Source of the DNA: Candidatus Nanopelagicales bacterium
GTDB lineage: Bacteria > Actinomycetota > Actinomycetes > S36-B12 > JBBQYX01
Direction: 5' to 3'
DNA length: 64,000 nt
Assembly (NCBI GenBank): GCA_038208295.1
Contig: JBBQYX010000006.1
Span: 15,437 to 79,436, forward strand
Under the pieces are notes generated by a model. It was not told the origin of the DNA. It was given only the letters and a program-made list of their open reading frames with translations, and did not search any database. A program made the translations under genes and the position numbers. Positions 14,081 to 57,384 of this stretch are shown here, one piece after another (the stretch's first letter is position 1; every line of letters starts with the position of its first letter).

Positions 14081-14094
14081 CTCATCGCCGGTGG

Positions 14095-17804: not shown

Positions 17805-17874
17805 GATGCTGTCACATACGCAGACGTAGGACCGGCGAGCGGACGACCCGGTCCGCGGTCACTGACGGAACCGG

Positions 17875-21483: not shown

Positions 21484-22607
21484 GATCTCCTCCTCGCGAA
21501 ACGGCGGACCCGGGAACTCCCCGTTCGGGTCCGGCCGAGGTAACGGGCGATGCTGAACAGCAGCAGGACTATGAACACCAGCACGAATGCGCCGCCGTAG
21601 GCCCGTTCCTGCTGCGCGGCGAACGGGTTCGTGAGCAACTGGTACACCGACAGGGGCAGGCTGGCCTGAGCCCCGGCGAACGGGTTCGCATTCATCGCGG
21701 TCGAGCCGAACGATGTCATGATCAGCGGCGCGGTCTCTCCGACCACCCGGGCCACGCCCAGCACCACGGCCGTGATCAGCCCGGATCGCGCAGTGGGCAG
21801 CACGACGCTCCACACGGTACGGAACTCCGTGGAGCCCAACGCCAACGAGGCCTCGCGGAGCCCGTCGGGCACCAACCGGAGGACCTCCTCCGAGGTCCGC
21901 GCGATGGTGGGCAGCATCAGGACCGACAACGCCATCGCTGCCGCGAAACCGCTGAAGGAGAAACCGAACTGCACGATCCACACCGCGTAGATGAACAGGC
22001 CCGCAACGATGGATGGCACGCCACTCATGGCGTCGATGAACATGCGCACCGGCCGGCGCAGCGGGCCGCCGACCTCGTTCAGGAACACCGCGGTCAACAC
22101 ACCCAGCGGCACCGAGATGACCACGGCCAGCGAAACCTGTTGCAGGGTGCCGACCAGGGCATGCGCCAGGCCGCCGCCGGCGTCCAGGGTACCGGTGAGC
22201 GAGAGATCCCGGGTGAAGAAGTCGGGTTTCAGCGCCGCCACGCCGCGGCCGAACACGAACAGCAGGATCAGCATCAATGGGACCAACAGCATCGCCGTCC
22301 CCAGCGTCACCACGGTCGTTGCCACCCGGTCCCGGGCCGGCAGCCGACCCAGCGTGGCCCGACAGACCACCCAGTAGAGAGCCCAGAAGGCCAATAGCCA
22401 CAGGACCAGGAAGCCCGCAATACCGGTGGTGGGGAGCAACTGGGTCCACAGCAGCCAGACCACGGACAGGGACGAAACCGCCGCACCGAACAGCAGCATC
22501 CGGTCCTCGGTGGTCGAGCCGTGGATGTGCCGTTCGACCTCCGGAGATTCCAGCGGCCGCTCGCCCGTCACCGTGGTGCGTTCGGTGAGGCTCACAGTCC
22601 TATCCAT
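21480..22607 (-). CDS. PstA-type permease, second copy
   Basis: ATG at 22607 (MDRTVSL) in ORF 21480..22676. Multi-TM with [14 protein letters not shown]. Collinear with the canonical PstA at 9501..10574. Confidence 0.85.
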
Positions 22608-22623
22608 TCGCTCGGTCCGGTGC

Positions 22624-23637
22624 TCACAGCTCCACCCCCGCACCGCTTCTCGACCGCGCCACGATCGCCGAGGCAACGAAGTTGACGGTCAGCGCCAGCG
22701 CGAACAGGGCCAGCCCGGCGGCCATCAGGGCTGACAACTGCAACGGGTCGGCCTCGCCGAAGCGCAGGGCGATCAGGGCGGCGACCGAGTTCGCTCCGGT
22801 CTGCAGCAGGTTGGGCCGGATCTCGAAGATCGGCGAGATGATCAGCGCCACCGCGATGGTCTCGCCCAGCGCCCGGCCCAGGCCCAGCATCGCGCCGCCG
22901 ATGATGCCGCCACGGCCGAACGGCAGGACGACCGCGCGCACCATGCCCCAGCGGGTGCTGCCCAGCGCCAGCGCCGCCTCCTTCTCTCCCGGCGGCGTCT
23001 GGCTGAAAACCTCCCGCACGACCGACGTGGTGATCGGCAGCACCATCAGCGACACGACCACCCCCGCGATGAACGCCGAGGACGAGTACGACTCCGCCGT
23101 GACCGCGAAGAACGGGATGAACGACAAGTGCGTCGACAGCGCCTGTGCCAGGGGCACCAGGTACTGCTGCAGGAAGATCAGTCCCCACATGCCGTAGATG
23201 AGGCTGGGAATGGCGGCCAGCAGATCGACCAGAGAGCGAAGCGGTCCGCGCAGCCGGCGCGGGGCATAGTCCGTCAGGTATAGCGCAGCCAGAATGCTCA
23301 GCGGCACCGCGATCACCAGGGCGATGAGCGCGATGACGACCGTCCAGTACAGGACCGCAGCGATCCCGAACGTGGGCGGCGTCCGGTCCGGATTCCACCT
23401 TTGCTCGGTGAAGAACGACCACCCCTGACTGGCCAGGGCTGGTTCGGCCCGGATGAGCAGAAACGCGCCGATCAGCACCAGAATCAGCAACGTGGCGATC
23501 CCGGCAGCCAGCGCGAAACCTCGGTAGACCCGGTCGACCCTGGTCCGGGCCGAGGTCAACTCGCGCGGTTGGTCCGCTTCGTTCTCCTCGATCGCGAGAT
23601 CCGAGTCGCCGAAGAACGGTTCCAGCGGCGACGACAT
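22624..23637 (-). CDS. PstC-type permease, second copy
   Basis: ATG at 23637 (MSSPLEPFF) in ORF 22624..24003. Multi-TM with KEAALALGSTRWGM. Collinear with PstC at 10574..11569. Confidence 0.85.
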   Translation of the reverse strand: MSSPLEPFFGDSDLAIEENEADQPRELTSARTRVDRVYRGFALAAGIATLLILVLIGAFLLIRAEPALASQGWSFFTEQRWNPDRTPPTFGIAAVLYWTVVIALIALVIAVPLSILAALYLTDYAPRRLRGPLRSLVDLLAAIPSLIYGMWGLIFLQQYLVPLAQALSTHLSFIPFFAVTAESYSSSAFIAGVVVSLMVLPITTSVVREVFSQTPPGEKEAALALGSTRWGMVRAVVLPFGRGGIIGGAMLGLGRALGETIAVALIISPIFEIRPNLLQTGANSVAALIALRFGEADPLQLSALMAAGLALFALALTVNFVASAIVARSRSGAGVEL

Positions 23638-23781
23638 GGGGCTCCTCGGTCGTGGATCGGCGCCGGTGTCGGTGGTTCGCTGTACGCAGTCCACCGGCGG
23701 GCGCATTGACGGCGGCCGCGCATAGGTGCGCCCCGGCTGCGCCGCAGAGCATCCGCGGCCTCGCGCAACGGCAGGGCGATA

Positions 23782-23814
23782 CCGGCGGGAACAAGCCGTG
23801 ACGAGCAGATGAAC
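23782..23814 (-). promoter_or_regulatory. Three consecutive 11-nt GTTCA-type units (GTTCATCTGCT CGTCACGGCTT GTTCCCGCCGG), PHO-operator-like
   Basis: Read on the minus strand, 145-177 nt upstream of the second pstC start, in the 254-nt divergent intergenic region. The periodicity is exact but the core conservation is only partial. Confidence 0.4.
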
Positions 23815-23891
23815 AGTCAGCGATCTGCGTTTGCACCGGCTTGACGCCATGCGGCGATGCCGCGCACCGTGCTCCCCGGTCCTGCCGAGCC

Positions 23892-25865
23892 ATGGCGGGG
23901 CCGTCGGCGAGACTGTGGGGAGTTGAGCGCGTGCGCGCCGGGACTCGTGCCGTGCTGGCCGCCGCCACGGCGGTGGTGACGGTGTTCTGCGGGATCCAAA
24001 CAATCCCGGCGTCCGCCGCCGCGAACTCGGGGCCGCGCACCGTCTCGGTCGTTCCGGCCGGCGGGCTGACCGACGACCAGACGCTCACCGTGTCCTGGTC
24101 GGGTTTCGCGCCGATCGCGGGCGTGGTGATCCGCCAGTGCGGCCCCGACCCCACCGAGGCGTCCGCCTGCAGCACGGCGCTGGTCGCCGGGGAGTCCTCC
24201 GACGAGTCCGGCCGAGGCACGGCCTCGATCCCGGTCGTCATCACCGACCCGGTGAACAACCGGCTCCTGGAGGGGGCACCGGAGGCGCGCTGCGACGCAA
24301 CGCATCCGTGCTCCATCGCCGTAGTGCCGCAGACCGCCCCCGATGACCTCAGCCAGGCAGCCATCGCGGCGATCACCTTCGCCAAGAGCCGCGCCGCCTG
24401 CCCTGAGCCGGGTGCCCTGACCCTGCGCGGGGAAGGCAGCGACAGCCTGGAACGGGCCATGCTCGCGTGGATCCCGCAGGTCTGCGACCCACCGCTGTCG
24501 GTGTCAGCCGACTACGTACCCAAGAACGACCCCAGTGGTGTGGAGGATGTGGCCTGCGGGCTGCGCGACATCGCGGGTGTCCAGGCGGCTCCCCCCGATG
24601 ACTCCTGCCCGTTCACCGGCAAGAGCCGGCCGGCGTCAGCGGTTGCGCCGGTGGCTGTTTCCGGGCTGGCCTTCGCGTTCAACATGCGCGACACCGACAC
24701 CGGGCGGCGCATCGATGCACTGAAACTCACCCCGGACGTCCTGGCCGAGATCTTCACCGGCCAGATCCTGTCCGGGCGCGATCCACGCATCACGAAACTC
24801 AACCCCGGCGTGAAACTGCCCACAAAACTGCGTCCCATCGCCCGCGCCGACCGCAGCCAGCTCACCGTGCAGATGTCCACGTTCTTCTGGCAGACCGCGC
24901 ACACGGCGTACACCTCCGGCGGTCCCGCGTTCAGCGCCGGGCCGATCGATGTCTTCCCCACGCTGGGCGGGGTGGACGCCCGCACCGGTGGCGACCCAGT
25001 GGCTCTCGCCGTCGCCCGACCGCCGGACAACAACCCAAAGTCGGACCCGACGTACGGCTACATCGGCGTGCTCGACACCAGCATGGCCGCTGCCTACGGG
25101 CTGCCCAGCGCCTCGATCCTGGGCACCGACGACAAGACGTGGGTACCGCCGACCGCCGACTCACTGGCCCGTGGGCTGGCCGCGATGAAGCCCGGTCCCA
25201 CCGGGACCCTCGTCGCGAACCCGGCACCCAAGGATCCGCGGGCGTACCGGCTGCCGGTCGTCTCCTACTTCCTGCTGCCTCCGGCCGATTCGCCGGCCAC
25301 GGTAACCGCGGCCGGGGTCCTGTTCACCGGCTGGGTGACCACCACCGGGCAAAGCAAGGACATCCTGCCGCTGGGCTACCTGGCATTGCCGCCGACGCTG
25401 GTCAGCCAGGCAGCCAACGCGTACGGACTGCGCGGGGACAGCAAGCGTGCGCCCGCCGCGGCCGACCCCAGCCCAGCACCTTCGGCCAGCGCCTCCGGCT
25501 CGGCGCCCTCGGCCGGTCCAGCCACGGCCGCCCCTGCCCCCGCGCCCGTCCAGCCCGGCGTCCCGGTCCCCGCATCGGTGGGGCCGGCAACTGCTCCGGT
25601 CGTCCCGATTGCCCCGACCGCCCTGGCTGCAGGCCAGCCGACCAACGCGCCCACGCGCCGGCCCAGCGCCTCGGCAGGCGTCACCGACCCGGTCATGGCC
25701 GCTCCCGACGCGGCAGTGCCGGCGGTCGTGACGACGTCGGTGTTCGCTCCGGCTGCCCCAGAGGGGCTGCCGGCATCATCCTGGTTGTTCCTCGCCCTCG
25801 TCTTCGGTGCCGTGACCGCGCTGCTGGCAGCGCCGCGCAGCCGCCGCCGCGGGAGCCAGTCGTGA
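23892..25865 (+). CDS. Exported multi-domain protein: neocarzinostatin-like N-domain, divergent PstS-like binding fold, Pro/Ala linker, sorting-signal-like C-terminus
   Basis: ATG at 23892 in ORF 23841..25865. Signal peptide ending PASAAA. TVSVVPAGGLTDDQTLTVSWSGF...VIRQCG...PCSIAV resembles the NCS/Ig-like domain. LTPDVLAEIFTGQILSGRDP matches the PstS-family motif. The tail is LPASS, then WLFLALVFGAVTALLAA, then PRSRRRGSQS. Confidence 0.75.
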   Translation: MAGPSARLWGVERVRAGTRAVLAAATAVVTVFCGIQTIPASAAANSGPRTVSVVPAGGLTDDQTLTVSWSGFAPIAGVVIRQCGPDPTEASACSTALVAGESSDESGRGTASIPVVITDPVNNRLLEGAPEARCDATHPCSIAVVPQTAPDDLSQAAIAAITFAKSRAACPEPGALTLRGEGSDSLERAMLAWIPQVCDPPLSVSADYVPKNDPSGVEDVACGLRDIAGVQAAPPDDSCPFTGKSRPASAVAPVAVSGLAFAFNMRDTDTGRRIDALKLTPDVLAEIFTGQILSGRDPRITKLNPGVKLPTKLRPIARADRSQLTVQMSTFFWQTAHTAYTSGGPAFSAGPIDVFPTLGGVDARTGGDPVALAVARPPDNNPKSDPTYGYIGVLDTSMAAAYGLPSASILGTDDKTWVPPTADSLARGLAAMKPGPTGTLVANPAPKDPRAYRLPVVSYFLLPPADSPATVTAAGVLFTGWVTTTGQSKDILPLGYLALPPTLVSQAANAYGLRGDSKRAPAAADPSPAPSASASGSAPSAGPATAAPAPAPVQPGVPVPASVGPATAPVVPIAPTALAAGQPTNAPTRRPSASAGVTDPVMAAPDAAVPAVVTTSVFAPAAPEGLPASSWLFLALVFGAVTALLAAPRSRRRGSQS

Positions 25866-26851
25866 GCGCACCCACGGACCACGTCCGGGAAATGATTCCG
25901 CCACCGACCGCGCCAGTGCCGACGGCGGAACTGCTGGCGGCGGACGTGGAAAATCTTCCGGACGACCCTTTCGAGACGCCCGAGCCGCCGCCCGTGGCCG
26001 CCGTCGCCCGCTACTCCGACTCCCGGTGGCCCCGTCCGACGCGGGCGCAGCTGCTGCTGGGCGTCGGCGTGTTGATTGTTTCCATGCTCGCCGTGCAGTT
26101 CCTGCTCGGCGCGCCCCTGCAGGCGCGCAGCCAGACCGTGCTGCACCAGCAGTTCGCCGACAAGCTCGCCACCGCTGCATCGACCGCCGGCCAGGTCGGC
26201 CTGTCCCCCCTACCGCCGTACCCCCCGGCCACCGGCGAGCCGGTGGCCCTGCTGCGGATCCCGGCGCTCGGGCTCAGCCAGGTGGTCACCGAAGGGGCGG
26301 ACGGGGCCACCCTGCAGAACGGCCCGGGTCACGTCCCCGGGACCGCCGGGCCGGGCGAGCCGGGCAACTCAGTCATCAGCGCGCACCGAACCGCATGGGG
26401 CGCCGCATTCCGCGGGCTGACCGGGCTGCGCGTCGGCGATCCGATCGCTGTCACCACCGTCGCCGGTACAGCCCGCTACATCGTCACCGGCACCGGGACG
26501 CCGGACCCGTTGGCGCTGACCGCCGACAACCGGCTCACCCTGGTCACCTCCGACCCGCCGCTGCTCGCATCGACCGACTACGCGGTGAGCGCTGCGTTGC
26601 AGGGGGCGCCGTTCCCGCCCACCGCTCAGAACGGCCTCGTCGACCGGCCGTTGCACTCCGGGTCACCGGCCGCGTGGGCGCAACTGGTGTTCTGGCTGTC
26701 CCTGGGGTTGGGCCTGCTCGCCGCCGTCGTCGTGGCGCTGCGCATCGGGCTGGCGCGACCCGTCATCTGGCTGCTGGCGACCCCGCTGGCCCTGGCCCTA
26801 CTGGTCGTGCTCACCCGGACCCTGGACACGTTCCTGCCCCCGACGCTGTGA
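25862..26851 (+). CDS. Sortase-fold membrane protein lacking the catalytic Cys (class E-like, TLVTS variant)
   Basis: GTG at 25862 overlaps the upstream stop (GTGA). N-terminal TM helix. GHVPGTAGPGEPGNSVISAHR matches the sortase His region. RLTLVTSDP replaces TLxTC(H)P. The translated 329 aa contain no Cys. Two extra C-terminal TM helices. Confidence 0.7.
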   Translation: MSAPTDHVREMIPPPTAPVPTAELLAADVENLPDDPFETPEPPPVAAVARYSDSRWPRPTRAQLLLGVGVLIVSMLAVQFLLGAPLQARSQTVLHQQFADKLATAASTAGQVGLSPLPPYPPATGEPVALLRIPALGLSQVVTEGADGATLQNGPGHVPGTAGPGEPGNSVISAHRTAWGAAFRGLTGLRVGDPIAVTTVAGTARYIVTGTGTPDPLALTADNRLTLVTSDPPLLASTDYAVSAALQGAPFPPTAQNGLVDRPLHSGSPAAWAQLVFWLSLGLGLLAAVVVALRIGLARPVIWLLATPLALALLVVLTRTLDTFLPPTL

Positions 26852-27102: not shown

Positions 27103-28464
27103 GTGCGAGTCACCACCAAGGTCGGCGCTGCGATCGCCATCTGCGCCGCCGTCGGCGTCGTCGCGACGACGCTGCCCGCCTCCGCGGCCGCCGGTTGGAC
27201 CACCGGCAAACCCGTCATGATCGTCGGACAGGGCTCCGACACCAACTACGACGTCATGACGAAGCTGGACGCGTTGTACAACAACGCGCCCGGGTGCGGC
27301 GTCATCGCAAACCCCGGTGTGTCGATCGGCACGGCCGACCTGGGTTCCTGCATCGACCCGGCCACCGGCAAGGTTGCCACCCCCGACGCCAACGACGCCA
27401 TGTACCTCAATCCCCAGCACGACCAGGTGAACGAGGCGTTCCCGGTCGGTTCTGGCAGCGGCATCAAACTATTGGTCAACCAGGGCGGCGCCGGCGTACC
27501 GCAGGTCGACTTCGCCCGCTCCTCCCGGGGCCCCGGGACCGACGCGAAGACCACGAAGTTCGTGGCGTTCGCCCGTGACGGCGTCACCTGGTTCCACTTC
27601 ACCAAGGCCGCGGGGAAGTTCACCCCCTCCGCGCAGATCACGAACCTGACCCAGCAGCAACTCCTAGACGTCTTCACCGGCAAGACCACGAACTGGAAGG
27701 ACATCTCCTCGCTGGAGACGGTCCGGGTCACGAAGTACGTCGTGAAGCCGGTTTACCGCAAGGACCCCAAGACCGGACGTTTCGTCAAGGTGTTCAAGAA
27801 GGACGCGAAGACCGGCAAGGTGGTGCCCGTCACCTCCGTAGTCAAGACGTACGTGAATCAGCAGAAGACCATCACCGGCGGCGACGCCCCGATCAAGCTC
27901 TACATCGCACAGCCGGGCTCCGGCACGCTGTCGACATGGAACTCGTTCCTGGGTATCGGGACCGGCAGCAACGCGTACCCCACGGGTGACGCAGCGCCGA
28001 AGTCGATCTTCGAGAACAATGCCAACCCGATTGTGGACAATGGGGACGCGGCCAACGCCATCTTCTTCTTCTCAACCGGCCGGTACGCCCAGTCGGTCGG
28101 CAAGGCCGGCCAACTGGTGGGCAACTCCACCGGGCGGCCGAACTACACCGATGCGATCGGCAAGATCGCCGGTATCGCCCCGACCCCCGACACCATCGGC
28201 GGCAAGGACTTCCCCGGCTTCCGCAACCTCTACTTCGTGACCAACGACCCGGTCAAGGCGAACGTCGCCAACTACCTCGACCCGATCAACGGCTTCCTGT
28301 GCGGGACCAAGTCCGAGACCGTGAAGAACGCCCAGGGCGCCACGTTCCGCAGCGTCATCGAGAAGACCATCGCGAGCGAGGGCTTCGTTCCGATCGTCAA
28401 GAAGACCATCACCGACGGCGCCGCCACTGGCAGCTCCTACTGCGAGGTCTCCCGGGTTTCCTGA
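27103..28464 (+). CDS. Exported PstS-family binding-fold protein with Lys-rich insertion
   Basis: GTG at 27103 preceded by GAAGGGA. Signal peptide ending PASAAA. VGSGSGIKLL, FARSSRGPG, QPGSGTLSTW and LTQQQLLDVFTGKTTNWKDI parallel the PstS motifs. An insertion follows (KYVVKPVYRKDPKTGRFVKVFKKDAKTGKVVPV). Confidence 0.8.
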   Translation: MRVTTKVGAAIAICAAVGVVATTLPASAAAGWTTGKPVMIVGQGSDTNYDVMTKLDALYNNAPGCGVIANPGVSIGTADLGSCIDPATGKVATPDANDAMYLNPQHDQVNEAFPVGSGSGIKLLVNQGGAGVPQVDFARSSRGPGTDAKTTKFVAFARDGVTWFHFTKAAGKFTPSAQITNLTQQQLLDVFTGKTTNWKDISSLETVRVTKYVVKPVYRKDPKTGRFVKVFKKDAKTGKVVPVTSVVKTYVNQQKTITGGDAPIKLYIAQPGSGTLSTWNSFLGIGTGSNAYPTGDAAPKSIFENNANPIVDNGDAANAIFFFSTGRYAQSVGKAGQLVGNSTGRPNYTDAIGKIAGIAPTPDTIGGKDFPGFRNLYFVTNDPVKANVANYLDPINGFLCGTKSETVKNAQGATFRSVIEKTIASEGFVPIVKKTITDGAATGSSYCEVSRVS

Positions 28465-31137: not shown

Positions 31138-31680
31138 GTGAGCCAGGTCGACGCGCCGGAGCCTGCCGCAGCGGCGGTGCCCCCGGCTCTGCTGCCGTGG
31201 TCATGGCTGATCGGCCGCTGGCTCGGCGTCGGTTTGGGGCAATACCCCACCATCGAGGATTTCCGCTTCGGCCAGGAGGTCCAGTTCGCCACCGACGGTC
31301 GGCCCCTGCTTACGTACTGGTCGCGGACCTGGCTGCTTGATGAGCACGGTGATCGGGTCCGTCCGCTGGCCAGTGAGACCGGATTCTGGCGCCCCCAACC
31401 GGACAATCAGATCGAGGTCGTGCTGGCCCATGGCAGCGGTTTCGCCGAGGTCTGGTACGGGAGTCTCACCGTCACCGGAATGGACAATGCCGTCATCACC
31501 GGGGCCCGGGCTGAACTGCACACCGATGTCGTGGCCCGCACCGGGTCCGCCAAGGAGGTCACGGCCGGTCACCGGCTGTACGGCCTGGTCGAGGGCGATC
31601 TGCTCTGGACCTACGACATGGCGGCGGTGGGCCAACCGCTGCAGAACCACCTGTCCACCCGACTGCAGTTGGCTGATTGA
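31138..31680 (+). CDS. Nitrobindin / FABP-family (DUF1794) heme-binding beta-barrel protein
   Basis: LLPWSWLIGRWLGVGLGQYPTIEDFRFGQEVQFATDGRPLLTYWSRTW matches the actinobacterial nitrobindin (Rv2717c-like) N-terminal signature. Confidence 0.8.
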   Translation: MSQVDAPEPAAAAVPPALLPWSWLIGRWLGVGLGQYPTIEDFRFGQEVQFATDGRPLLTYWSRTWLLDEHGDRVRPLASETGFWRPQPDNQIEVVLAHGSGFAEVWYGSLTVTGMDNAVITGARAELHTDVVARTGSAKEVTAGHRLYGLVEGDLLWTYDMAAVGQPLQNHLSTRLQLAD

Positions 31681-31689
31681 TCTGCAGCC

Positions 31690-32220
31690 ATGACCGGCTC
31701 CCGGGAGACCGATGCAGCGGCAGTCCCTGCCCGAAGTGGTGCGGTCGAGGACTGGCGTCGACGGCTGCGTGCTCATGGATACCGCATCACTCCACAGCGG
31801 CAGCTGGTGCTCGCGGCGGTCAATCGGCTGAAGCACGCGAGCCCGGAGCAGATCCTCAGCGAGGTTCAGCTCACCGCACCCAATGTGAATCTGTCCACCG
31901 TCTACCGCACTCTGGACGTCCTGGAATCCGTACGCCTGGTGACCCATGCGCACATCGAGCACCGGGCCCCGACCTATCACTCCGTCGACGACCGGCCGCA
32001 CATCCACCTCGTCTGTGATCACTGCCACGAGGTCCAGGGTGTGCCGGGTGCGATCGCCGAGCCGCTGTCCGCGGCCCTTCAGCAGGACTGGGGTTTCGGC
32101 CTGGAAGTCGGGCACATCGCACTGCACGGCAGGTGCGCCGACTGTGCCGGGTCAGCGGAATCCCTTGCGGCGGCGGTAGAACCGGGTAGGCCCGGTGCGG
32201 GCGCAGTGGAATCCGGGTAG
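31690..32220 (+). CDS. Fur-family metalloregulator
   Basis: RITPQRQLVL..., LSTVYRTLDVL (wHTH), and HLVCDHCHEV ... HGRCADC (two CxxC). Confidence 0.85.
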   Translation: MTGSRETDAAAVPARSGAVEDWRRRLRAHGYRITPQRQLVLAAVNRLKHASPEQILSEVQLTAPNVNLSTVYRTLDVLESVRLVTHAHIEHRAPTYHSVDDRPHIHLVCDHCHEVQGVPGAIAEPLSAALQQDWGFGLEVGHIALHGRCADCAGSAESLAAAVEPGRPGAGAVESG

Positions 32221-32334
32221 TCCCGCTTGGTCCGGGCTGCTGCCGTGGCCTCGGTAAGTCCGGTGCCGCACCGACGGCATACAACCAGCCACCTGACCTG
32301 ACCTGACCAGCCACATGACCTGCGAGGTGCCACG

Positions 32335-33393
32335 ATGACCAGCAACCCGGGACAAGCCGGCCCGAGCCTGGACCTGCCTGGCGCATGCCCGGCCACGGAC
32401 ACCAGTGCGGACCTGGGCGTGGCGTGGCACTACGGCGATCCGCATGCCGAGCAACGGACCCTGCTCGCAGGTGCCGGCATCGTTGACCTGTCCCACCACG
32501 GCGTGGTCCGCGTGACCGGTCCGGACCGGCTGACCTGGCTGCACGATCTGACCACCGGATGGCTGCGGGACCTACCGGCCGGCGCCAGCGCCCTGGCCCT
32601 GATCCTCGACCCGCATGGCCACGTCGAGCATGAATTGCACGTCGTCGACGACGGGACGAGCAGCTGGTTGATGGTCGAACCGGGCACCGCGGCGGACCTG
32701 ATCGCCTACCTGGACTCGATGCGTTTCCTGCTCCGCGTGGAGGTCTCCGACGCCGCCTCCCAGTGGGCGGTCCTCGGGCTGCCGGAGATCGCCCAGCCGC
32801 CCGAGCAGGCATTGTCCTGGTTGATGCCGGCGGAGTGGCGGGGCACCGGTCACACCGACGCCGGGTCGGATGCGGGCGGGGACGCCTCGCGCTATGTCCC
32901 GCAGCGCCCCGATGTCATGCCCGTACGGGAGATCCTGGTCCCCCGAACCGCCGCGGCCGACCTGCTGACCGGTGACCTGCGCCCGGTCGGTACCTGGGCG
33001 TGGGAGGCACTGCGGGTGGCGGCTGCGATCCCCCGGCTGAATCACGAGACCGATCACCGCACCCTGCCGCACGAGGTCGGCTGGGTAGGTCCGGCCGTCC
33101 ACCTGGCGAAGGGGTGTTACCGCGGCCAGGAGGCCGTGGCCCGAGTGCACAACCTGGGCCGCCCGCCGCGCCGACTGGTGCTGCTGCACCTGGACGGAAG
33201 CCTGGAGCAGGTGCCCGCGCACGCCGATCCCGTCCGACACGGCGGCCGGGACATCGGCTGGGTTGCCAGCGTGGCCCGCCACCACGAGCTCGGCCCGATC
33301 GCCACGGCGGTGATTCGGCGTTCGACGCCCATTGCTGACCCGTTGGCCGTCGGGCCGGTCTCCGCCACCCAGGAGGTCGTCGTTGCTGGGTGA
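32335..33393 (+). CDS. ygfZ: YgfZ/GcvT-like folate-binding protein
   Basis: DLSHHGVVRVTGPDRLTWLH and the C-terminal KGCYRGQE motif are characteristic of YgfZ. Confidence 0.85.
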   Translation: MTSNPGQAGPSLDLPGACPATDTSADLGVAWHYGDPHAEQRTLLAGAGIVDLSHHGVVRVTGPDRLTWLHDLTTGWLRDLPAGASALALILDPHGHVEHELHVVDDGTSSWLMVEPGTAADLIAYLDSMRFLLRVEVSDAASQWAVLGLPEIAQPPEQALSWLMPAEWRGTGHTDAGSDAGGDASRYVPQRPDVMPVREILVPRTAAADLLTGDLRPVGTWAWEALRVAAAIPRLNHETDHRTLPHEVGWVGPAVHLAKGCYRGQEAVARVHNLGRPPRRLVLLHLDGSLEQVPAHADPVRHGGRDIGWVASVARHHELGPIATAVIRRSTPIADPLAVGPVSATQEVVVAG

Positions 33394-33421
33394 TTCCGTG
33401 GTGTGGCAAGCGCCCGTCGGG

Positions 33422-35875
33422 TCAGCGGAAGAAGCCCCGCCGCTGCTTGCGGGTCTCGCGCTGCGGGGTCGCCGACCGGACGGTGGTCGGGCGACCGGGG
33501 GCCGCTGCACGCGGCTCCTCGGCACCGAAGCCACCGAGACTGGACAGTTCCCGGAGCAGCGCGGCGGTGTCGGTCTGGTCGTCACGGGCCCCGCTGCCGT
33601 CCTGCATCCCGGACAGGCCGGCGCGCTCCTGGGGCTCGGCAACTGCCGCGGTAGGGGACACCTCGGGGGCCGGCTGCTCGGGCGCCGCCGGGGCGTCCAA
33701 CGACAGTTCGTGCAACAGCGCGGCAACCTGGGCGGCTGATACGGGACTCGGCACCACCGCGTGCTGGAATCCGTCACCGGGGGAGGACGGCTGGGGCGGC
33801 GCGCCATGCGCTGCGTCGATGAGGACGGGACGTCCGGGTCCGGTCGGCACCGCCGCGGGAGCGACCGCAGGGGCAGCCGATCCACTGGGAACGTTGGCTG
33901 CTGAGTCGTTCACGGCACGGTCCGCTGCCGGCTGGATCCCGACCTGGAACTCTTCGCTCGCAGCCATGTCCGTCAACTGCTCAGCAGCTGTCTCGACAGT
34001 GCCGTCGACTGCAGTGCCGTCGACTGCAGTGCCGTCGGCAGGGGCGTCAGCTGCTGCCGCGGTCGGCCCGCGCTCGTGGGCGCCGTGCCGGACATCGGCG
34101 GGGTCGCAGAAGAGCTGATCGGCGGGTGCCGGGACATCCGCCGTGCTTGGCGTCTGGTCCAGCTGGGTCGCCACGAGCGCTGTCGCGCCCAGGTCAGCCT
34201 CGTCCAGCGCCGTGTTGTCCAGTCCTGTCTCGCCCGGTGCTGTCGCGTCCAGCTCAGCCTCGTCCAGCGCCGTGTTGTCCAGTGCTGTCTCGCCCGGTGC
34301 TGTCGCGTCCACCTCGGTCTCGACGCACGCCGTACCGACCGGTGCTGTCGCGTCCAGCTCGGTCTCGACGCTCGCCGTCTCGTCCAGCGTCTCGATTGGC
34401 CCGGTGTCGGCGCGCCCCGTCTCGTCGTTCCCGGCCGCTTCGACAAACGGTGTCTGGTCGAGGTGCTCGGCGACGTGCTGATCGTCCTCGTTCTCATCGG
34501 TCGAGACCTGCTGGGGAGCACTCTCCTCGACCGGAATCTGTTGTGCCGCAGCTTCTTCGACCGAGGACTGCAGTGCCGCACTCCCATCGGCCGGGAACGC
34601 CGGCGCCACGCTCTCGTCGGCCAGGGCCTGCTGCGCCACGCTCTCGTCGACCGAGAGTGGCTGGGCCGCAGTCTCGTCGGCGGCGTTCTCGTCGACCGGA
34701 ATCTCGGCGACCGGAACTTCGTCGGCGGCGTTCTCGTCGGACGCCAGCTCCGCCGACTCGGCGTCCCCCGAAGCCGTGCCATCGGAGGCCGCAATGTCGG
34801 AGGCCGCAGTGTCGCAGGCCGCATCGCGGGCGGTGAAGTCGAACGCATCCGCGTGCGCGGCCGGGTCACCGTTGGTTGCCCGCTCGCGATCGGACGCGTC
34901 CGTACCGATTGCGTTCACACTGCCCACGGCCGGCGCGGCCGACTCGCCGAACAGGCCGCCGAGGGCGGCTAGCGCCCAGGCGGCGTCGTCCACGACGTCT
35001 CGGTCGGGCCACGCCGGCTCCGTCATCGGCGCCGCGTCGCCATCCTCCGGCCGCAGGCACAGGACGTCCGCCAGCGCGGAATCGGAGAAGTCGGTGTCCC
35101 CGTCGTTCCAGTAGTCCCCGTCGACGTCGTCGTCCAACTCCACCAAGCCGGCATCGAGCAGCCCGCGGACCACCTCGGCGGCCTCGAAAATGGTGAAGCC
35201 ACAGTCGTAGGCCAGGTCCGTGACGGTGCGGCCACCGTCGACCTTGCATAGCAGCGACCAGTCCCCAGGCCCGAGCACCACGTCGGCCCCCGGCACCGAA
35301 CTGGTCGACAGCACCGGGACGCTGGAGGCGCCACCCAACTCGGCGAGCAGCAACTCCCAGCTGTCCCGCCGCTCCCGCGCCGCGGTGATCAACTGTCGGG
35401 CGTCTAGATGGATCTCTCGCGCGATGGTGCTGTCGAGGATCTCACCCGGCTCGCCCCCTTCGTCGAACCAGGCATCGGCAGCGGTCTGCCGGACCAGTTC
35501 GGCGACCTGGTCCACGATCTCCTCGGTCAGGTATTCCAGGACGACCGCGCGGTCCACATACCCCTCGGTGCTGAGCAGGTCCACCAAAGCTGGGCTCGGG
35601 CGTCGGGCGGCCCGCTCATCCAGTGCCGACTCCAGCGCCTGCGGGCTCAGGACCCCCGCGGAGACCATGCGCAGGCCGAGGTCGGGGCGTCGACCGGGGA
35701 CATCAGCGGCGACCACCGCGCCGATCCGCAACCAGACCCGCGCCTGTCCAGCGGGGGTGGCCGGCACCACGATGGCGCCGGTGGCCTCGTCATGAGACAG
35801 CCGGTGCAGCAGTGCCTCGAAGGCAGGTTCGACCGAGGCCTTCAGGCCGGTGCGTACATAACCATCCACGGTCAT
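33422..35875 (-). CDS. DUF4388-like N-terminal domains followed by a ~450-aa acidic tandem-repeat region and a basic C-terminus
   Basis: ATG at 35875 (MTVDGYV) in ORF 33422..36022. The N-terminal 270 aa are globular. The rest is D/E/A/T-rich with 20-aa and 5-aa repeats. The tail is LLRELSSLGG...RKQRRGFFR. Confidence 0.7.
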   Translation of the reverse strand: MTVDGYVRTGLKASVEPAFEALLHRLSHDEATGAIVVPATPAGQARVWLRIGAVVAADVPGRRPDLGLRMVSAGVLSPQALESALDERAARRPSPALVDLLSTEGYVDRAVVLEYLTEEIVDQVAELVRQTAADAWFDEGGEPGEILDSTIAREIHLDARQLITAARERRDSWELLLAELGGASSVPVLSTSSVPGADVVLGPGDWSLLCKVDGGRTVTDLAYDCGFTIFEAAEVVRGLLDAGLVELDDDVDGDYWNDGDTDFSDSALADVLCLRPEDGDAAPMTEPAWPDRDVVDDAAWALAALGGLFGESAAPAVGSVNAIGTDASDRERATNGDPAAHADAFDFTARDAACDTAASDIAASDGTASGDAESAELASDENAADEVPVAEIPVDENAADETAAQPLSVDESVAQQALADESVAPAFPADGSAALQSSVEEAAAQQIPVEESAPQQVSTDENEDDQHVAEHLDQTPFVEAAGNDETGRADTGPIETLDETASVETELDATAPVGTACVETEVDATAPGETALDNTALDEAELDATAPGETGLDNTALDEADLGATALVATQLDQTPSTADVPAPADQLFCDPADVRHGAHERGPTAAAADAPADGTAVDGTAVDGTVETAAEQLTDMAASEEFQVGIQPAADRAVNDSAANVPSGSAAPAVAPAAVPTGPGRPVLIDAAHGAPPQPSSPGDGFQHAVVPSPVSAAQVAALLHELSLDAPAAPEQPAPEVSPTAAVAEPQERAGLSGMQDGSGARDDQTDTAALLRELSSLGGFGAEEPRAAAPGRPTTVRSATPQRETRKQRRGFFR
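33998..34042. repeat. 15-nt tandem repeat x3 (agtgccgtcgactgc) inside the acidic protein gene
   Basis: Direct reading of the sequence. Encodes (DGTAV)n on the minus strand. Confidence 0.9.
34181..34385. repeat. 60-nt tandem repeat (~3.4 copies) inside the acidic protein gene
   Basis: 34181-34240 and 34241-34300 are near identical, followed by 45-nt and partial copies. Encodes ATAPGETxLDNTALDEAxL-type 20-aa repeats. Confidence 0.9.
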
Positions 35876-36042
35876 GAGCACCTCCTTCGTGCTGCGGGCG
35901 AGCAGTGGTCCGGCCGGCCTGCGCCGGGCGTCGTCGACTGCCACGGTGTGCAGGCACCGTGGCAACAGCTGGGTCGTCGTGCCCGTGCATCGACGCCACC
36001 GGCGCGCTGTGTTGAACTTCACTACGCCGAAAGGGTGAGAGC

Positions 36043-36966
36043 ATGACGAGCATGCCGGGTGCTGCCGTGATGATCACTGTCGCTCCCACCGGAGCCGAGA
36101 CCCGCGCAGCCGACGCCCCCGGCCTGCCGGTGACCCTCGATGACCTGGTCCGCACTGCCGTGACCTGCGAGCAAGCCGGTGCCGCGCTGATCCACGTCCA
36201 TGTACGCGATGGTCACGATGCGCCGTCGCTGGACATCGCGCGCCTGACCGAAACGGTCGACGCGCTGCGTGCGCACACCGATCTCGTGGTCCAGTTGTCA
36301 ACCGGCGGCGCAGTGACAGATTCCCTGGATGCCCGGCTGGCGGTGCTCGAGGCCCAACCGGACTCGTGCTCGCTGACCTGCGGGACGGTCAACTTCGGCA
36401 CCGACGTGTTCTTGAACCCGTGGCCGTTCATCGTGGAGCTCTACCGGACGACCCAGGCCCGCGGGATTGTCCCGGAGTTCGAGTTGTTCGACCTGGGCCA
36501 CATCGCCACGCTGCACCGCCTGTTGGACGCTGAGGGTCCGCCCTGTGGCGGGCGGGTGCACTGCGACTTGGTCCTGGGCGTGCCGGGCGGCCTGCCGGGC
36601 ACCCTGCCGGCGATGGCCGCCGCGGTGGCGGCGCTGCCCAGTGACGCCAGCTGGTCGGCTACCGGAGTGGGTCGTAACACCCTTCCGGTCCTGCTGACGG
36701 CGATCGCTCACGGTGGTCACGCGCGGGTTGGCATGGAGGACACGTTGACCTATGCCCCGGGGCGTCCGGTACGCGAGAATGCCGAACTGGTCGCCCGAGC
36801 GGCTTGGTTGGCCGCCGCTGCACTGCGTCCGGTGGCCACCCCGGCGCAGGCCCGCGAACTGCTCGGACTGGTCCAGCCTGCCGAGGTCCCCGCTGATTCC
36901 AGCGAGGATTCGGGCGCGACGGCTTCCGCAACTGCGACGCCGCACCCTCTGGAGGAGCGCCGATGA
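36043..36966 (+). CDS. BKACE-family (3-keto-5-aminohexanoate cleavage enzyme-like, DUF849) protein
   Basis: VMITVAPTGAE, LIHVHVRD (Zn-binding His pair), and GGHARVGMEDT near the C-terminus. Confidence 0.85.
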   Translation: MTSMPGAAVMITVAPTGAETRAADAPGLPVTLDDLVRTAVTCEQAGAALIHVHVRDGHDAPSLDIARLTETVDALRAHTDLVVQLSTGGAVTDSLDARLAVLEAQPDSCSLTCGTVNFGTDVFLNPWPFIVELYRTTQARGIVPEFELFDLGHIATLHRLLDAEGPPCGGRVHCDLVLGVPGGLPGTLPAMAAAVAALPSDASWSATGVGRNTLPVLLTAIAHGGHARVGMEDTLTYAPGRPVRENAELVARAAWLAAAALRPVATPAQARELLGLVQPAEVPADSSEDSGATASATATPHPLEERR

Positions 36967-37697
36967 ACGTCGAGGGGCCGACCCCGAGCAACGAACCTCC
37001 GGGCGCCGACGCGAGTACGCCGACCCGGCGCCGACGCGACCGGGTCCTCGCCACCCCTGCCGATGCGGACCTGGCAGTGCTGACGATCGAGCAGGTGCGC
37101 ACCCGCCGGCAGGAGGCGGAGCAGGAGGAGGCCGATCTGTCCTACCAGCGACGCATGCTGCAGGGGCGCATCGACCTCGTCGCCGCCGAGTTGCGCGCCC
37201 GCGAGCTGCGTAGCTCCACCGATCAGTCCGGCGGCTCGGCCCTGGCCGCGGCCGTCGTGGAGCCAGCCGGGACTACGGGCTCCGACCCGGTGGCCGGTAG
37301 CGCAGCGCACGCTGCCGCACCCGACGGCGAGCGGGCAGGGGCCAGGCCGGCCGGTGGCACGGACGCGGCACTGGTGGAGAAACTGGTGGCCGTGCTTTCC
37401 GACGGCAGCACGCGTTCGACGCGAGGACTGGGTCGCCATCTGTCGGTCGAGCCCAGCTCCGCCGAGAGCGGCCGCCGCGCCCTGGACCGGGTCGGCCTGG
37501 GCGCGACCGCCACCGACATCGCCACGGATACCGACGATGATCTGCGCGAGTTGCTCGACCGACTGCGCGCGTACGAGGCCGATGTGTCGCAACTGCGGCA
37601 CACGGTGCAGCGGGTGGCCGACGACCTGTCCGCCGAACTGGTCCGCCGCCACCGGGCCGGACTCACCAACATCGACGACCTGATCCCGCGTACGTAG
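36963..37697 (+). CDS. rsiG: RsiG-like c-di-GMP-binding anti-sigma factor (anti-sigma-WhiG type)
   Basis: Two exact E-x3-S-x2-R-x3-Q-x3-D motifs: EADLSYQRRMLQGRID (nt 37128-37175) and EADVSQLRHTVQRVAD (nt 37575-37622). They lie on two predicted helices separated by a disordered linker. The start overlaps the upstream stop (ATGA). Confidence 0.75.
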   Translation: MNVEGPTPSNEPPGADASTPTRRRRDRVLATPADADLAVLTIEQVRTRRQEAEQEEADLSYQRRMLQGRIDLVAAELRARELRSSTDQSGGSALAAAVVEPAGTTGSDPVAGSAAHAAAPDGERAGARPAGGTDAALVEKLVAVLSDGSTRSTRGLGRHLSVEPSSAESGRRALDRVGLGATATDIATDTDDDLRELLDRLRAYEADVSQLRHTVQRVADDLSAELVRRHRAGLTNIDDLIPRT

Positions 37698-37870
37698 ACC
37701 GCGCCTTCTTGATCACCGCGAGCGGGGGCTGGTGATGGGCTTGTGGGGACGCCAATGACTCCGGTCCCTTGGCCCCAGCCGGGGGGATCTGCCACCAGCG
37801 TGAGGCAGGTCACGGGCAGACTGCTAGCCAGCCGCTTGCAATTGCAAGCACCTCCGCGCAGACTGGAGCC

Positions 37871-38335
37871 ATGGCTCGGATCGACGTAGGAGCGGTAGGT
37901 GCATACATCCGCGAACAGCGGGATGTGGCGCAGATGTCGCTGCGGCAACTGGCCCGCACCGCCGAAGTCTCCAACCCGTATCTGAGCCAGGTAGAACGCG
38001 GACTGCGCCACCCAAGCGCAGAGATCCTTGCCAGGATCGCCACCGCGCTGCGGATCTCGGCCGAAACACTCTATGTCCGGGCCGGAATCCTGGAGGAACG
38101 CCTCGGTGACGCCGACGTCACCAACGCGATAGCGGCGGACGCCACGCTTAGCGAGCGGCAGCGCAAGGTAGTCCTGGAGATCTACGCCGCGTTCCAGGCG
38201 GAGAACGCCGCAACCGCGCCGTCGGGGGACAGACCTCGACCAGCGCCGACGGCGACCGCCGCGGCCGAGCAACCAGCCGGTGACTCGGCAACCTCGACCA
38301 ACCCAGACCCAGCACCCCGAAAGGTCGCATCATGA
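37871..38335 (+). CDS. XRE-family helix-turn-helix transcriptional regulator
   Basis: ATG at 37871. MSLRQLARTAEVSNPYLSQVERGLRHPS is a classic Cro/C1 HTH. Confidence 0.85.
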   Translation: MARIDVGAVGAYIREQRDVAQMSLRQLARTAEVSNPYLSQVERGLRHPSAEILARIATALRISAETLYVRAGILEERLGDADVTNAIAADATLSERQRKVVLEIYAAFQAENAATAPSGDRPRPAPTATAAAEQPAGDSATSTNPDPAPRKVAS

Positions 38336-39021
38336 CAACCCCCACTCCTGAGCCCACGGTGACTCCGGCCACGGCAGCGCCGAAGGCCCGCAAACCGCGT
38401 ACGAATAGCGCCAAGGCCGCCCCGAAGGCGACCGCGTCCACAACCACATCCGCGCCCAAGGCAGCACCGAAGAGCGAGCCGAAGTCCGCTCCCCAGGCGA
38501 AGACCTTGCGCGACCGACTGCCCAAGAGCCTCGGCGACCTGTCCGCGCTCGACCCTCGTACGTTCGAGCTGCCCAAGGTCACCCTGCCCAAGCTGGAGAT
38601 GCCGAACTTCGACCTGCCCAAGGTCGACATGCCGAAGGTGGATCTGCCCACCGTGGACCTGTCCACGCTGGAGCTGCCGAGCCTGGAGGAGATGCGGGCG
38701 TCCCTGGTGAAGATGCTCGACGAGATCCAAGAGGCGGTCATGGACGCCCCCACCCGGGTCGAGGACCTGCGTAAGTGGATGTCCACCGAAACGGACGACC
38801 TGCGGCACTGGATGACCACCGAGGTCGAGGCGTTCCGCGACGACCCGACCGAGGTCGCCAAGGACCTGCGCACGTGGGTCAGCACCGAAGCCGACGACCT
38901 GCGGCACTGGATGACCACCGAGGTCGAGGCGTTCCGCGAGGACCCGACCGAGGCCGCCAAGGACTTGCAGGCTCAGGTCACCAAGGCCGTGACCCGCGTC
39001 CGCGAGGCCGTCAGCCGCTGA
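38332..39021 (+). CDS. Repeat-containing protein with Lys/Pro/Ala-rich N-terminus and helical repeats (HbhA-neighbourhood-like)
   Basis: The start overlaps the XRE stop (ATGA). AAPKARKPRTNSAKAAPKA... N-terminus, (D/E)LPK short repeats, and two 33-aa repeats DDLRHWMTTEVEAFR(D/E)DPTE.AKDL. Confidence 0.6.
   Translation: MTTPTPEPTVTPATAAPKARKPRTNSAKAAPKATASTTTSAPKAAPKSEPKSAPQAKTLRDRLPKSLGDLSALDPRTFELPKVTLPKLEMPNFDLPKVDMPKVDLPTVDLSTLELPSLEEMRASLVKMLDEIQEAVMDAPTRVEDLRKWMSTETDDLRHWMTTEVEAFRDDPTEVAKDLRTWVSTEADDLRHWMTTEVEAFREDPTEAAKDLQAQVTKAVTRVREAVSR
38794..38970. repeat. 99-nt tandem duplication within the HbhA-like gene
   Basis: gacgacctgcggcactggatgaccaccgaggtcgaggcgttccgcga occurs at 38794 and again at 38893. 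Confidence 0.9.
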
Positions 39022-39294
39022 CGTCACCGACCACGGTCGGCATCCGTGACGACCACCCCGAGTGCCGACCGTGCAGCAGGGCCCGTTCCGCTTCGGCGGG
39101 CGGGCCCTGCGTACGTTCTGGGCTGCTGCCTGCGGCCCCCGGTGACCGCAGCAGCACACCGCCGCGGCGCCCGAATTCTGAGTCCTTCAGGCGCCGAGCG
39201 GGTTCGGTCCGCGAGCAGGTGCGCCGCAACGTGGCCACCCGATCGTGATGACCGGCTGCGAGCCGAGTCGCGTTGCGCCGGATACCGTGACTCC

Positions 39295-49182: not shown

Positions 49183-49276
49183 CATGTCGCGGCGTGGAAC
49201 ACGATCGGCTCCCCGCGGCGCGGCGGCGATGCCCTACCGTCAACGCCGTCCTACCGTCGAAGAAGGTGCGTTCGTC

Positions 49277-50530
49277 GTGACCGTGCGCCTGTCCCGCGTC
49301 CCCAGCATCGCCGTGGAGGCGTTGCGGCTGCTCGTCGTGGCCTTCGGCGCGGGTTTGGGATTCGAAGTGGCGCAGCGGCTCGGAGCCACCCGTAGTGATC
49401 CCGTGCTGGGTTCCTTCGACGGCGTCTGGGTCGGCGTGATCATCGGCGCAGGGCTGGGCTACTCGCTGGGTGGGGTCGTCGCTCGCACGCTGGTCCGCGC
49501 CATCGACTCCGGGGAACGGGCCCTGGATCGGCTCAGCCCGGAACAGGTCGTAGCCGGCAGCTTTGGTGCGCTGCTCGGCGCATTGCTCATCACCGTCGTT
49601 GGCTGGCCGCTGTTCCTGCTCGGTAGGCCGATCCTGGTCCTGCCGGTGTTCCTGCTCCTCGTACTCACCGGGGCCATGTTTGGCTTCCGGGTCGGCCGCG
49701 CCCGCCGCAGCGCGGTGCTGACGATGGCCGGACCTCGTACGGGCATCGCCGCGCCGCCGAGAGCCACCGCCTCGCTGCCTCGACTGCTGGACACCTCCGT
49801 GGCGATCGACGGTCGACTGCTGGACGTCGTCCGAGCCGGCTTCGTCCACGGCAGGCTGCTGATCTGCACCCCGGTGCTCGGCGAACTGCAGGCCTTGGCC
49901 GATTCCGCCGATGATCTGCGCCGGGCGCGCGGGCGCCGCGGCCTGGACGTCCTACAAGCCCTGGAGCGCGAACAGGGCGTGGAGCTGGAGCCCATCGGCG
50001 ACGAGGCCCCCGGCGTCTCCGACGTCGACGCCAAACTCATCCGCATCGCCTTGGACCGGCAGGCCGGCCTGCTGACCTTCGACACGAACCTGGCCAAGGT
50101 CGCCGCCCTGGCAGGGGCCCGGGTGTTGAACATGCACGCGCTGGCGCTAGCCCTGCGCCCCCCGGTCGTGGTCGGCGACGAGGTCGATGTCGTCCTGGCC
50201 AAGCCCGGCAAGGAGCCAGGACAGGCGGTCGGCTACCTCGACGACGGCACGATGGTCGTTGTAGAGGCGGCCCGGCCCCGGGTCGGCCAGGATGCCCGAG
50301 TGATCGTCACCAGTGTGCTCACCACGGCGAACGGCCGGATGGTGTTCGCCCGACTGGCGGGCCGGGGCGATGTGACCGGCGGCCTCGTCGGCAAGGACCC
50401 CGGCAAGGACCCTGGCAAGGACCCTGGCAAGGACCCTGGCGATGCCACCACCGCCGGGTCCGACCCGGCTCGGCCGACCGCACACCCGCTGCACGATCCG
50501 GTCGAATCCGCCCGGGCGCGGCAGCGATGA
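49277..50530 (+). CDS. PIN/TRAM-domain membrane protein (YacL-like)
   Basis: GTG at 49277. Four N-terminal TM helices. PIN region LLDTSVAIDGRL...ELQALADS. TRAM region GQAVGYLDDGTMVVVE. C-terminal (GKDP)4 repeat. Confidence 0.8.
   Translation: MTVRLSRVPSIAVEALRLLVVAFGAGLGFEVAQRLGATRSDPVLGSFDGVWVGVIIGAGLGYSLGGVVARTLVRAIDSGERALDRLSPEQVVAGSFGALLGALLITVVGWPLFLLGRPILVLPVFLLLVLTGAMFGFRVGRARRSAVLTMAGPRTGIAAPPRATASLPRLLDTSVAIDGRLLDVVRAGFVHGRLLICTPVLGELQALADSADDLRRARGRRGLDVLQALEREQGVELEPIGDEAPGVSDVDAKLIRIALDRQAGLLTFDTNLAKVAALAGARVLNMHALALALRPPVVVGDEVDVVLAKPGKEPGQAVGYLDDGTMVVVEAARPRVGQDARVIVTSVLTTANGRMVFARLAGRGDVTGGLVGKDPGKDPGKDPGKDPGDATTAGSDPARPTAHPLHDPVESARARQR
50390..50437. repeat. 12-nt tandem repeat x4 (ggcaaggaccc[ct]) encoding (GKDP)4
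   Basis: Direct reading of the sequence. Confidence 0.9.
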
Positions 50531-57138: not shown

Positions 57139-57384
57139 GTGGGGGTCATCCCTTCACCGGCAGGAACGTGCCGGACGATCCGTAGTGGAAGGAATCGGCA
57201 CGCTGGTGCCGACCGTGTGCAGTTGTGATCGGGACTTTACGCGCGCGTGCCCGTGCTGACCATGCTTTGTCGACAGTAGATTCCGACGAGGGTTCAGCCA
57301 GGCGACGCCGCTCGATCAGCACGACCGGCGCCGCGCCCGTGGCCACGGCTCCCCTAGACTCGGCGGTCGCCGTACGCCGTACCC

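Follow-up and report, generated by a model that had tools for sequence, protein, structure and literature searches.

The open reading frame (ORF) at 36963–37697 on the forward strand of a 64-kb stretch of an actinobacterial contig (Candidatus Nanopelagicales bacterium, JBBQYX010000006.1), the whole of which we call the window, encodes a 244-residue protein that is a twin-motif ortholog of RsiG (AmfC), as judged by its sequence, its predicted fold and its chromosomal position. In Streptomyces venezuelae, RsiG is a monomeric, twin-motif anti-sigma factor of σWhiG that is armed by cyclic di-GMP (c-di-GMP) (PMC7005675). The family is not new: it has been characterised structurally and phylogenetically, a Pfam model (PF22802) is devoted to it, and its members are scattered across the Actinobacteria. 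A first-pass annotation, made from the DNA letters and their translations, had described the product as RsiG-like and bearing a pair of c-di-GMP-binding motifs, and this identification is correct by the PF22802 match, by alignment to the S. venezuelae protein, by a Foldseek comparison of the predicted fold and by synteny. Homologs in the databases are already titled 'RsiG family protein' or 'aerial mycelium formation protein', and current Pfam or NCBI annotation would name the gene correctly; for the window the result is mostly confirmatory.

Both copies of the motif E-x3-S-x2-R-x3-Q-x3-D are perfect and of the Q form, with all ten motif residues present. Translation and a motif scan place the first predicted c-di-GMP motif, EADLSYQRRMLQGRID, at residues 56–71 on helix α1 (37128–37175, +) and the second, EADVSQLRHTVQRVAD, at residues 205–220 on helix α5 (37575–37622, +), which are the residue numbers that the first-pass annotation had given. 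With either Q or H allowed, these are the only two sites in the six-frame translations of the window (128,000 residues), and at least one strict motif arose in just 80 of 200,000 shuffles of the RsiG protein (4e-4). Among 52 homologs all five residues of motif 2 are invariant, and the E, S and R of motif 1 are invariant or near-invariant while its Q alternates with H, which matches the published description of RsiG; the final Asp of motif 1 is replaced by Ala or Ser in nine of 37 clade members. Compared in register, α1 and α5 are identical at 16 of 53 positions (30%), a value that fits the intragenic duplication described for the RsiG family and may be set beside the 33% identity of the same two helices in S. 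venezuelae RsiG (PMC8325347). The GC content at third codon positions (GC3) of the ORF is 0.85, like that of its neighbours, in a window of 69.7% GC.

The Pfam RsiG model matches the protein in two stretches with 89.7 bits against a cut-off of 27. The best match among PDB sequences is 6pfj_T, which is S. venezuelae RsiG (the 'AmfC protein' chain of 6PFJ/6PFV), with an E-value of 1.4e-23, and the alignment runs over residues 19–80 and 134–241, spanning both halves of the protein; the single-motif Rubrobacter-type RsiGs (7LQ2–7LQ4) come next at ~5e-5. An AlphaFold2 model built with 53 homologs has an overall predicted local distance difference test score (pLDDT) of 76, with helices at residues 42–88 (pLDDT >90) and 191–231 (~95), each of which bears one motif. 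The low values (~50) fall in an expanded Ala/Gly-rich linker (residues 81–133; 37203–37361, +), which is predicted to be disordered; set against S. venezuelae RsiG, the protein has ~53 residues inserted here, separating the first helix from what follows. Foldseek against the PDB returned four significant matches, all of them RsiG chains of 6pfv/6pfj with a probability of 1.00 and TM-scores (target) of 0.56–0.63, and the next match had an E-value of 2.5.

The gene also sits in a recognisable chromosomal context. The local order is a THAP4-type haem-binding protein gene (31138–31680, +), fur (31690–32220, +) and ygfZ (32335–33393, +), all three identified with Pfam and serving as synteny anchors; a PATAN (DUF4388) gene on the reverse strand; a gene of the BKACE family followed by rsiG; and then an XRE-family helix-turn-helix (HTH) regulator (37871–38335, +; Pfam HTH_3, 5e-11), a repeat protein and DUF2516. 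The S. venezuelae chromosome has THAP4, fur, ygfZ, dtd (on the reverse strand) and rsiG in this order, and the encoded proteins are collinear with window positions 31201–37685 (identities of 40% for THAP4, 51% for Fur, 49% for YgfZ and 32% for RsiG). This collinearity makes the window gene a positional ortholog of rsiG, beyond mere homology. Further out, Pfam and NCBIfam identify XPB-type helicases, pst genes, NUDIX, CHAD, ppk and a GNAT acetyltransferase before glnR, and beyond DUF2516 there are genes for a macro-domain protein, gpm, mshA, phoU, a histidine kinase/response regulator pair, ispD, ispF, cysS and groEL, so that the window reads as a typical actinobacterial core region. Horizontal acquisition of rsiG was considered and is ruled out because its GC3 equals that of the neighbours and the flanking synteny is ancestral.

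To place the gene among its relatives, we used a genome scan with the RsiG alignment, which gave 80 related loci, with at most 42% identity in that scan. Nearly all are metagenome-assembled genomes (MAGs) labelled Nanopelagicales, Sporichthyaceae, Motilibacteraceae, Frankiaceae, Mycobacteriales or 'Actinomycetes', and the remainder are Angustibacter and Kineococcus. Closest to the window RsiG are the proteins of uncultured lineages, represented by MAGs, that carry the labels Nanopelagicales, Sporichthyaceae, Motilibacteraceae and Frankiaceae. These lineages are not named in the main text of either RsiG paper (PMC7005675, PMC8325347), four family or genus names looked for in the supplement of the 2021 RsiG paper are absent from it, and no paper in the literature that we searched names them in connection with RsiG. 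Twin-motif RsiGs have been reported from scattered taxa, among them Kineococcus radiotolerans (Krad_0885), Acidothermus, Cryptosporangium, Geodermatophilaceae and Pseudonocardiaceae (PMC8325347, Table S1). These proteins share family and architecture with the window protein, and two Kineococcus loci (L079 and L080) are among the 80 relatives, but unlike the window these loci have neither a BKACE nor a PATAN neighbour.

Of the characterised systems, S. venezuelae RsiG (AmfC, Vnz_19430; 6PFJ/6PFV) is the closest. It likewise carries two motifs on two long helices, aligns over its full length, is the best and only significant fold match, shares an Arg and an Asp in the loop, and lies in the same chromosomal slot 3' of THAP4-fur-ygfZ. 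The two proteins differ in that their identity is just 32–37%, that the linker has 54 disordered residues in the window protein and four residues in the Streptomyces one, and that the N-terminal tails are unalike, that of the window protein bearing a motif, RRRxDxVL, which does not vary among 12 members sampled from its clade; moreover, Streptomyces rsiG stands alone after dtd, whereas the window gene is the second gene of an operon with BKACE. The single-motif RsiGs of Rubrobacter and Thermoleophilia (7LQ2–7LQ4) align in helix α1 and its motif (E ~5e-5) and share the same proposed ancestral mechanism, but they are proteins of 84–118 residues with one motif that form dimers, whereas the window RsiG has both motifs in one chain.

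The published mechanism of the family is the c-di-GMP-dependent sequestration of σWhiG (PMC7005675, PMC8325347), and orthology makes it probable that the window RsiG is likewise armed by c-di-GMP to sequester a WhiG2-type sigma factor; we infer its c-di-GMP binding, its sigma partner and its regulon on this basis. The helices at residues 42–88 and 191–231 would pack as an antiparallel coiled coil, each presenting one E-x3-S-x2-R-x3-Q-x3-D motif, and the nucleotide-loaded protein would bind and sequester a sigma factor of the WhiG2 clade (σ28 family; signature Lys57/Gly61/Arg62) encoded elsewhere in the genome, which would be released when c-di-GMP falls. In this lineage such an RsiG would be made from the second gene of a two-gene operon, coupled to BKACE through an ATGA overlap and an internal Shine-Dalgarno sequence. 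In a published survey, each of the 134 genomes that had rsiG encoded whiG and diguanylate cyclases as well (PMC7005675), and the presence of RsiG correlates with the WhiG2 clade (r = 0.88; PMC12871210). In S. venezuelae RsiG the loop residues that contact c-di-GMP are Asp106, Ser108, His110, Ser112 and Arg115. The equivalent of Arg115 in the window protein is R158, which is invariant among the 52 homologs, and that of Asp106 is D147, which is conserved, while Ser108, His110 and Ser112 correspond to T150, S152 and G155, three positions at which the whole clade differs from Streptomyces. The switch that governs sporulation in Streptomyces and type IV pili in Rubrobacter would thereby be extended to a divergent organism, the closest kin of which are uncultured actinobacterial lineages from fresh water and soil.

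Directly upstream of rsiG lies a gene (36043–36966, +) that matches the Pfam BKACE (DUF849) family with 294 bits over the full-length domain and is translationally coupled to rsiG. The junction (36951–36966, +) consists of a Shine-Dalgarno sequence, GGAGGAG (36951–36957), 6 nt upstream of the rsiG ATG at 36963, and of the tetranucleotide ATGA (36963–36966), in which that start codon overlaps the TGA stop of the BKACE ORF; the first-pass annotation had reported this overlap with a 3-keto-5-aminohexanoate-cleavage-family gene, and it is present at exactly these positions. The protein aligns over its full length with the 3-keto-5-aminohexanoate cleavage enzyme Kce (2Y7D; E 1.9e-57 for 2y7d), and its IHVHVR and MEDT are matched by IHLHIR and FEDN in Kce, conserving the HxH and ED that we take to be the zinc-binding and catalytic residues of that enzyme. 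From these residues the window enzyme looks active. The NCBIfam equivalog model for Kce (NF052387) gives 265.6 bits, below its cut-off of 382, and since the score falls short the gene is assigned to the BKACE family only. It further differs from the Kce of lysine fermentation in having no lysine-fermentation genes nearby.

The arrangement is conserved well beyond the window. Of the 80 related loci, 76 have BKACE directly 5' of rsiG and in the same orientation, with 45–72% identity; 47 of the loci have the identical 4-nt NTGA overlap (ATGA, GTGA or TTGA) after GGAG, and in six more the gap between the two genes is −1 to +6 nt. The first-pass annotation had called BKACE an unexpected partner of rsiG, and of this the coupling is real while the unexpectedness does not stand, the pair being a conserved operon of the clade within a conserved core region. 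Either gene can nevertheless occupy the slot alone: rsiG is found there without BKACE in S. venezuelae (ygfZ-dtd-rsiG) and Kineococcus (ygfZ-rsiG), and BKACE without rsiG in Bailinhaonella thermotolerans and a Streptosporangiaceae MAG, where the enzyme is 69–70% identical and where the same XRE gene (62% identity) and DUF2516 come next, and in the MAG mshA as well. A homolog of the XRE gene, which in the window is 62% identical to the HTH gene after BKACE in these Streptosporangiales, is present in 54 of the 80 loci. Because each gene occurs alone in the slot, the coupling is real but not obligatory; the simplest reading is an ancestral gene order from which either gene could be lost and in which the junction became tight in this clade. 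We read BKACE-rsiG as a lineage-specific operon, in which adjacency alone does not imply a functional partnership. As an operon it would tie expression of rsiG to the promoter of the enzyme gene, and it offers a reliable genomic marker of the clade. A scan of 33300–39100 found neither sigma-70 promoters nor intrinsic terminators, a result that, for a high-GC actinobacterium, is uninformative as to an internal promoter of rsiG.

A second recurrent feature of the related loci lies in the divergent intergenic region between the operon and the PATAN gene. We scanned the loci with the WhiG consensus T(A/C)AA-N15-17-GCCGA, as used in PMC12871210, where a promoter is called when T(A/C)AA-N16-GCCGA lies within 200 nt of a start codon. 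The scan gave 85 matches against 23 expected, and 48 of the 85 share a single homologous location: the intergenic region between the divergent genes, on the PATAN strand, 15–116 nt before the presumed start. At this homologous site TCAA-N16-GCCGA is exact in 48 of 66 related loci, and 45 distinct sites yield the consensus CTCAACA-N13-CCTGCCGATGC; the other 18 loci have the variant CTCAAT-N14-GTCCGATGG. In loci L003–L076 the element is located ~950–1000 nt upstream of rsiG. Two conserved blocks separated by a spacer of variable sequence and fixed length form the pattern of a promoter. These observations are indirect evidence that the clade may have a σ28/WhiG-type sigma factor with the gene beside rsiG among its targets. 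If the relatives' element is a WhiG promoter, transcription should start 7–10 nt 3' of GCCGATGC and depend on WhiG, and the element would supply a ready-made candidate WhiG target where none has been defined.

The window copy is a degenerate σ28/WhiG-type promoter-like element 5' of the PATAN gene (35987–36015, −), located with a position weight matrix (PWM) at the site homologous to that in the relatives. It comprises a −35 element TCAA (36015–36012), a 17-nt spacer and a −10 element GTCGATGC (35994–35987), 111 nt before the ATG at 35875, and it is the top PWM match with a 17-nt spacer in the whole window, yet a weak one at 10.6 bits, the training median being 35.8. According to Rfam, the divergent intergenic regions of the window and of locus L012 contain no RNA family, c-di-GMP riboswitches included. 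As a separate observation, loci L002, L005, L006, L013, L015, L016, L024, L031 and L062 have Ala or Ser where RsiG motif 1 should end in Asp, as in EADLSFLRRMLHGRIA; several of these are labelled Nanopelagicales, and the same loci have the variant promoter form GTCCGATGG. The loss of the Asp together with the variant promoter may represent co-variation or a relaxation of the system in that subgroup.

The divergent neighbour itself (33422–35875, −) encodes an 817-residue protein with an N-terminal PATAN (DUF4388) domain (PF14332, E 1.1e-6), the rest being an acidic tail rich in Ala, Asp, Glu and Thr, with 15- to 60-nt tandem repeats in the DNA at 33997–34823. Of the 80 related loci, 71 have a homolog of the PATAN gene, and PF14332 matched all 18 homologs tested, at best with 5e-21. 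The N-terminal domain contains an MshEN-like helical insertion, especially at 35519–35683 (−), which is eroded in the window copy. A family profile of the N-terminal 300 residues matches PilF (6F8L, 3e-9), MshE (5HTL, 3.2e-5) and PilB (5ZFR, 3e-4), and its match to these MshEN/T2SSE_N modules covers both 24-residue motifs. MshEN domains bind c-di-GMP and consist of two tandem motifs of 24 residues with the relaxed form [RKPN]hGxxhhxx[GAS]hhxxxxhxxxhxx[QNKRYWST] (PMC5013675). In the relatives these read xLGxRLxSSGALxPEALAEALExQ and RLGELLVHLGxVDRAVVExFVxEQ with a 7-residue spacer, compared with five residues in MshEN. Motif II of the window protein, ALVDLLSTEGYVDRAVVLEYLTEE, departs from the relaxed form at positions 1, 3, 7 and 24, with the Arg, Gly and Gln lost (ALVDLL...TEE), and motif I departs at position 1 and ends in Arg, not Gln, so that the window copy falls outside the MshEN definition. 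For the family as a whole, c-di-GMP binding would be a lead to follow and not a finding.

Taken together, the BKACE-rsiG operon and the divergent gene with its WhiG-type promoter and MshEN-like insertion may constitute a compact three-gene c-di-GMP/WhiG module in a large, mostly uncultured actinobacterial clade, with the RsiG arm intact and the PATAN promoter and motifs decaying in the window organism; we offer this only tentatively and consider it rather doubtful. Were it true, the PATAN neighbour would be a target of the RsiG-controlled sigma factor and, in addition, a further receptor of c-di-GMP, one that might steer type IV pili or cell polarity, as PATAN proteins do in cyanobacteria; there, regulators with this domain interact with the motor of the type IV pilus (bioRxiv 10.1101/2021.06.11.447907). 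We did not find the BKACE operon or the WhiG-type promoter with its PATAN/MshEN-like gene in the literature that we searched; both deserve a note, and they concern the clade more than the window.

Several observations weigh against the assignment of a conventional, sigma-controlling RsiG to the window. Pfam scans of ~50 ORFs revealed no sigma factor, GGDEF, EAL or HD-GYP gene in the 64 kb. A tblastn search with Bacillus subtilis SigD, run with no positive control, likewise found no σ28 gene in the window (best E 1.5) or in 1.17 Mb of the related loci (up to 10 kb from rsiG in each of the 80). The statement of the first-pass annotation that neither a whiG-like sigma gene nor a diguanylate cyclase is in the window thus holds as far as these searches reach. 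The loop contacts His110 and Ser112 of S. venezuelae are replaced (S152 and G155). The protein is an outlier, with a mean identity of 45% to a clade whose internal identity is 61%, and of 37% to Streptomyces, and its disordered linker has 54 residues where 40 sampled homologs have 4–30. The neighbouring promoter copy is degenerate, TCAA-N17-GTCGA having one mismatch and one extra spacer base, and the exact WhiG promoter consensus is absent from the window (none, with 1.6 expected by chance). These features could be taken to mean that the protein is an orphan or repurposed RsiG, which has kept its clamp and lost the control of a WhiG-type sigma factor, acting as a c-di-GMP buffer or on another partner with the linker serving a new function. 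It is the most divergent clade member sampled and has a uniquely long linker, the adjoining PATAN gene has here lost both the exact σ28 promoter match and residues of its MshEN-like motifs, and no sigma gene lies in the window. Against this, purifying selection has evidently preserved all ten residues of the c-di-GMP motifs and the conserved R158 in the loop, and rsiG is always found alongside whiG in the published surveys (PMC7005675). The absence of a sigma gene carries no weight, since whiG lies ~1.5 Mb from rsiG in S. venezuelae and its absence from a 64-kb window is to be expected. We regard loss of sigma control as very improbable. The divergent RsiG, the degenerate promoter and the eroded MshEN-like motifs together point to a long-branch organism in which the clamp is strictly kept while its surroundings drift. 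The further idea that the ORF is no true RsiG at all, being a coiled-coil protein that carries the motif twice by chance, has only the low complexity of the linker in its favour and can be dismissed: the Pfam and PDB matches are highly significant, the fold search finds RsiG only, the motif occurs nowhere else in the six-frame window and in few of the shuffles, and the chromosomal position is conserved.

A different question is whether BKACE and RsiG are partners in function, such that the enzyme, its substrate or its product modulates RsiG, or RsiG regulates the enzyme; a reaction linking β-keto acids and acetyl-CoA would then be tied to c-di-GMP and sigma control. The recurrence of BKACE 5' of rsiG in loci from several actinobacterial lineages, so many of them sharing NTGA after GGAG, speaks for such a link, as do HxH and ED, whose alignment with Kce makes the enzyme look active. 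Tight overlaps, however, are frequent in high-GC operons between genes that are unrelated. Both genes are also found alone in the same slot (in S. venezuelae and Kineococcus on the one side, and in Bailinhaonella and the Streptosporangiaceae MAG on the other), and no paper in the searched literature mentions RsiG together with BKACE, DUF849 or 3-keto-5-aminohexanoate. We consider the functional pair unlikely, and retain the reading of a lineage-specific operon that carries an RsiG with the mechanism of its family.

The window contains some other features as well. Downstream of the XRE gene, and overlapping its stop in a further ATGA, is an ORF for a 229-residue repeat protein (38332–39021, +; GC3 0.90) in which pentapeptide repeats of the form LPK(V/L)D(M/L)P occur together with two helical repeats of 33 residues and of the type DLRxWMxTE (a 99-nt tandem repeat of 2.1 copies); its sole Pfam match, apolipoprotein-like, is weak and below the cut-off, and none of the 80 related loci has a homolog. 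An unusually phosphate-centred stretch beside glnR contains three PstS-like (PBP_like_2) genes (11736–12914, −; 18917–21094, −; 27103–28464, +), four BPD_transp_1 permease genes in two groups (8686–11587, together with an ATP-binding cassette (ABC) ATPase gene, and 21480–24084), and genes for a NUDIX-histidine phosphatase, a CYTH-CHAD protein and polyphosphate kinase at 13079–17858. A large ORF (23802–25865, +) has a neocarzinostatin-family domain (E 4e-9) and is overlapped or followed by an ORF with a sortase domain (25139–26851, +). A gene for a PIN-TRAM domain protein (49184–50530, +; weak Pfam matches of ~5e-5) lies just 5' of ispD-ispF-cysS. Finally, an Rfam msiK RNA motif (58 bits; 57143–57200, −) is located 5' of a gene for an MsiK-type ABC ATPase (56044–57153, −), with a tRNA gene nearby (57385–57456, +).

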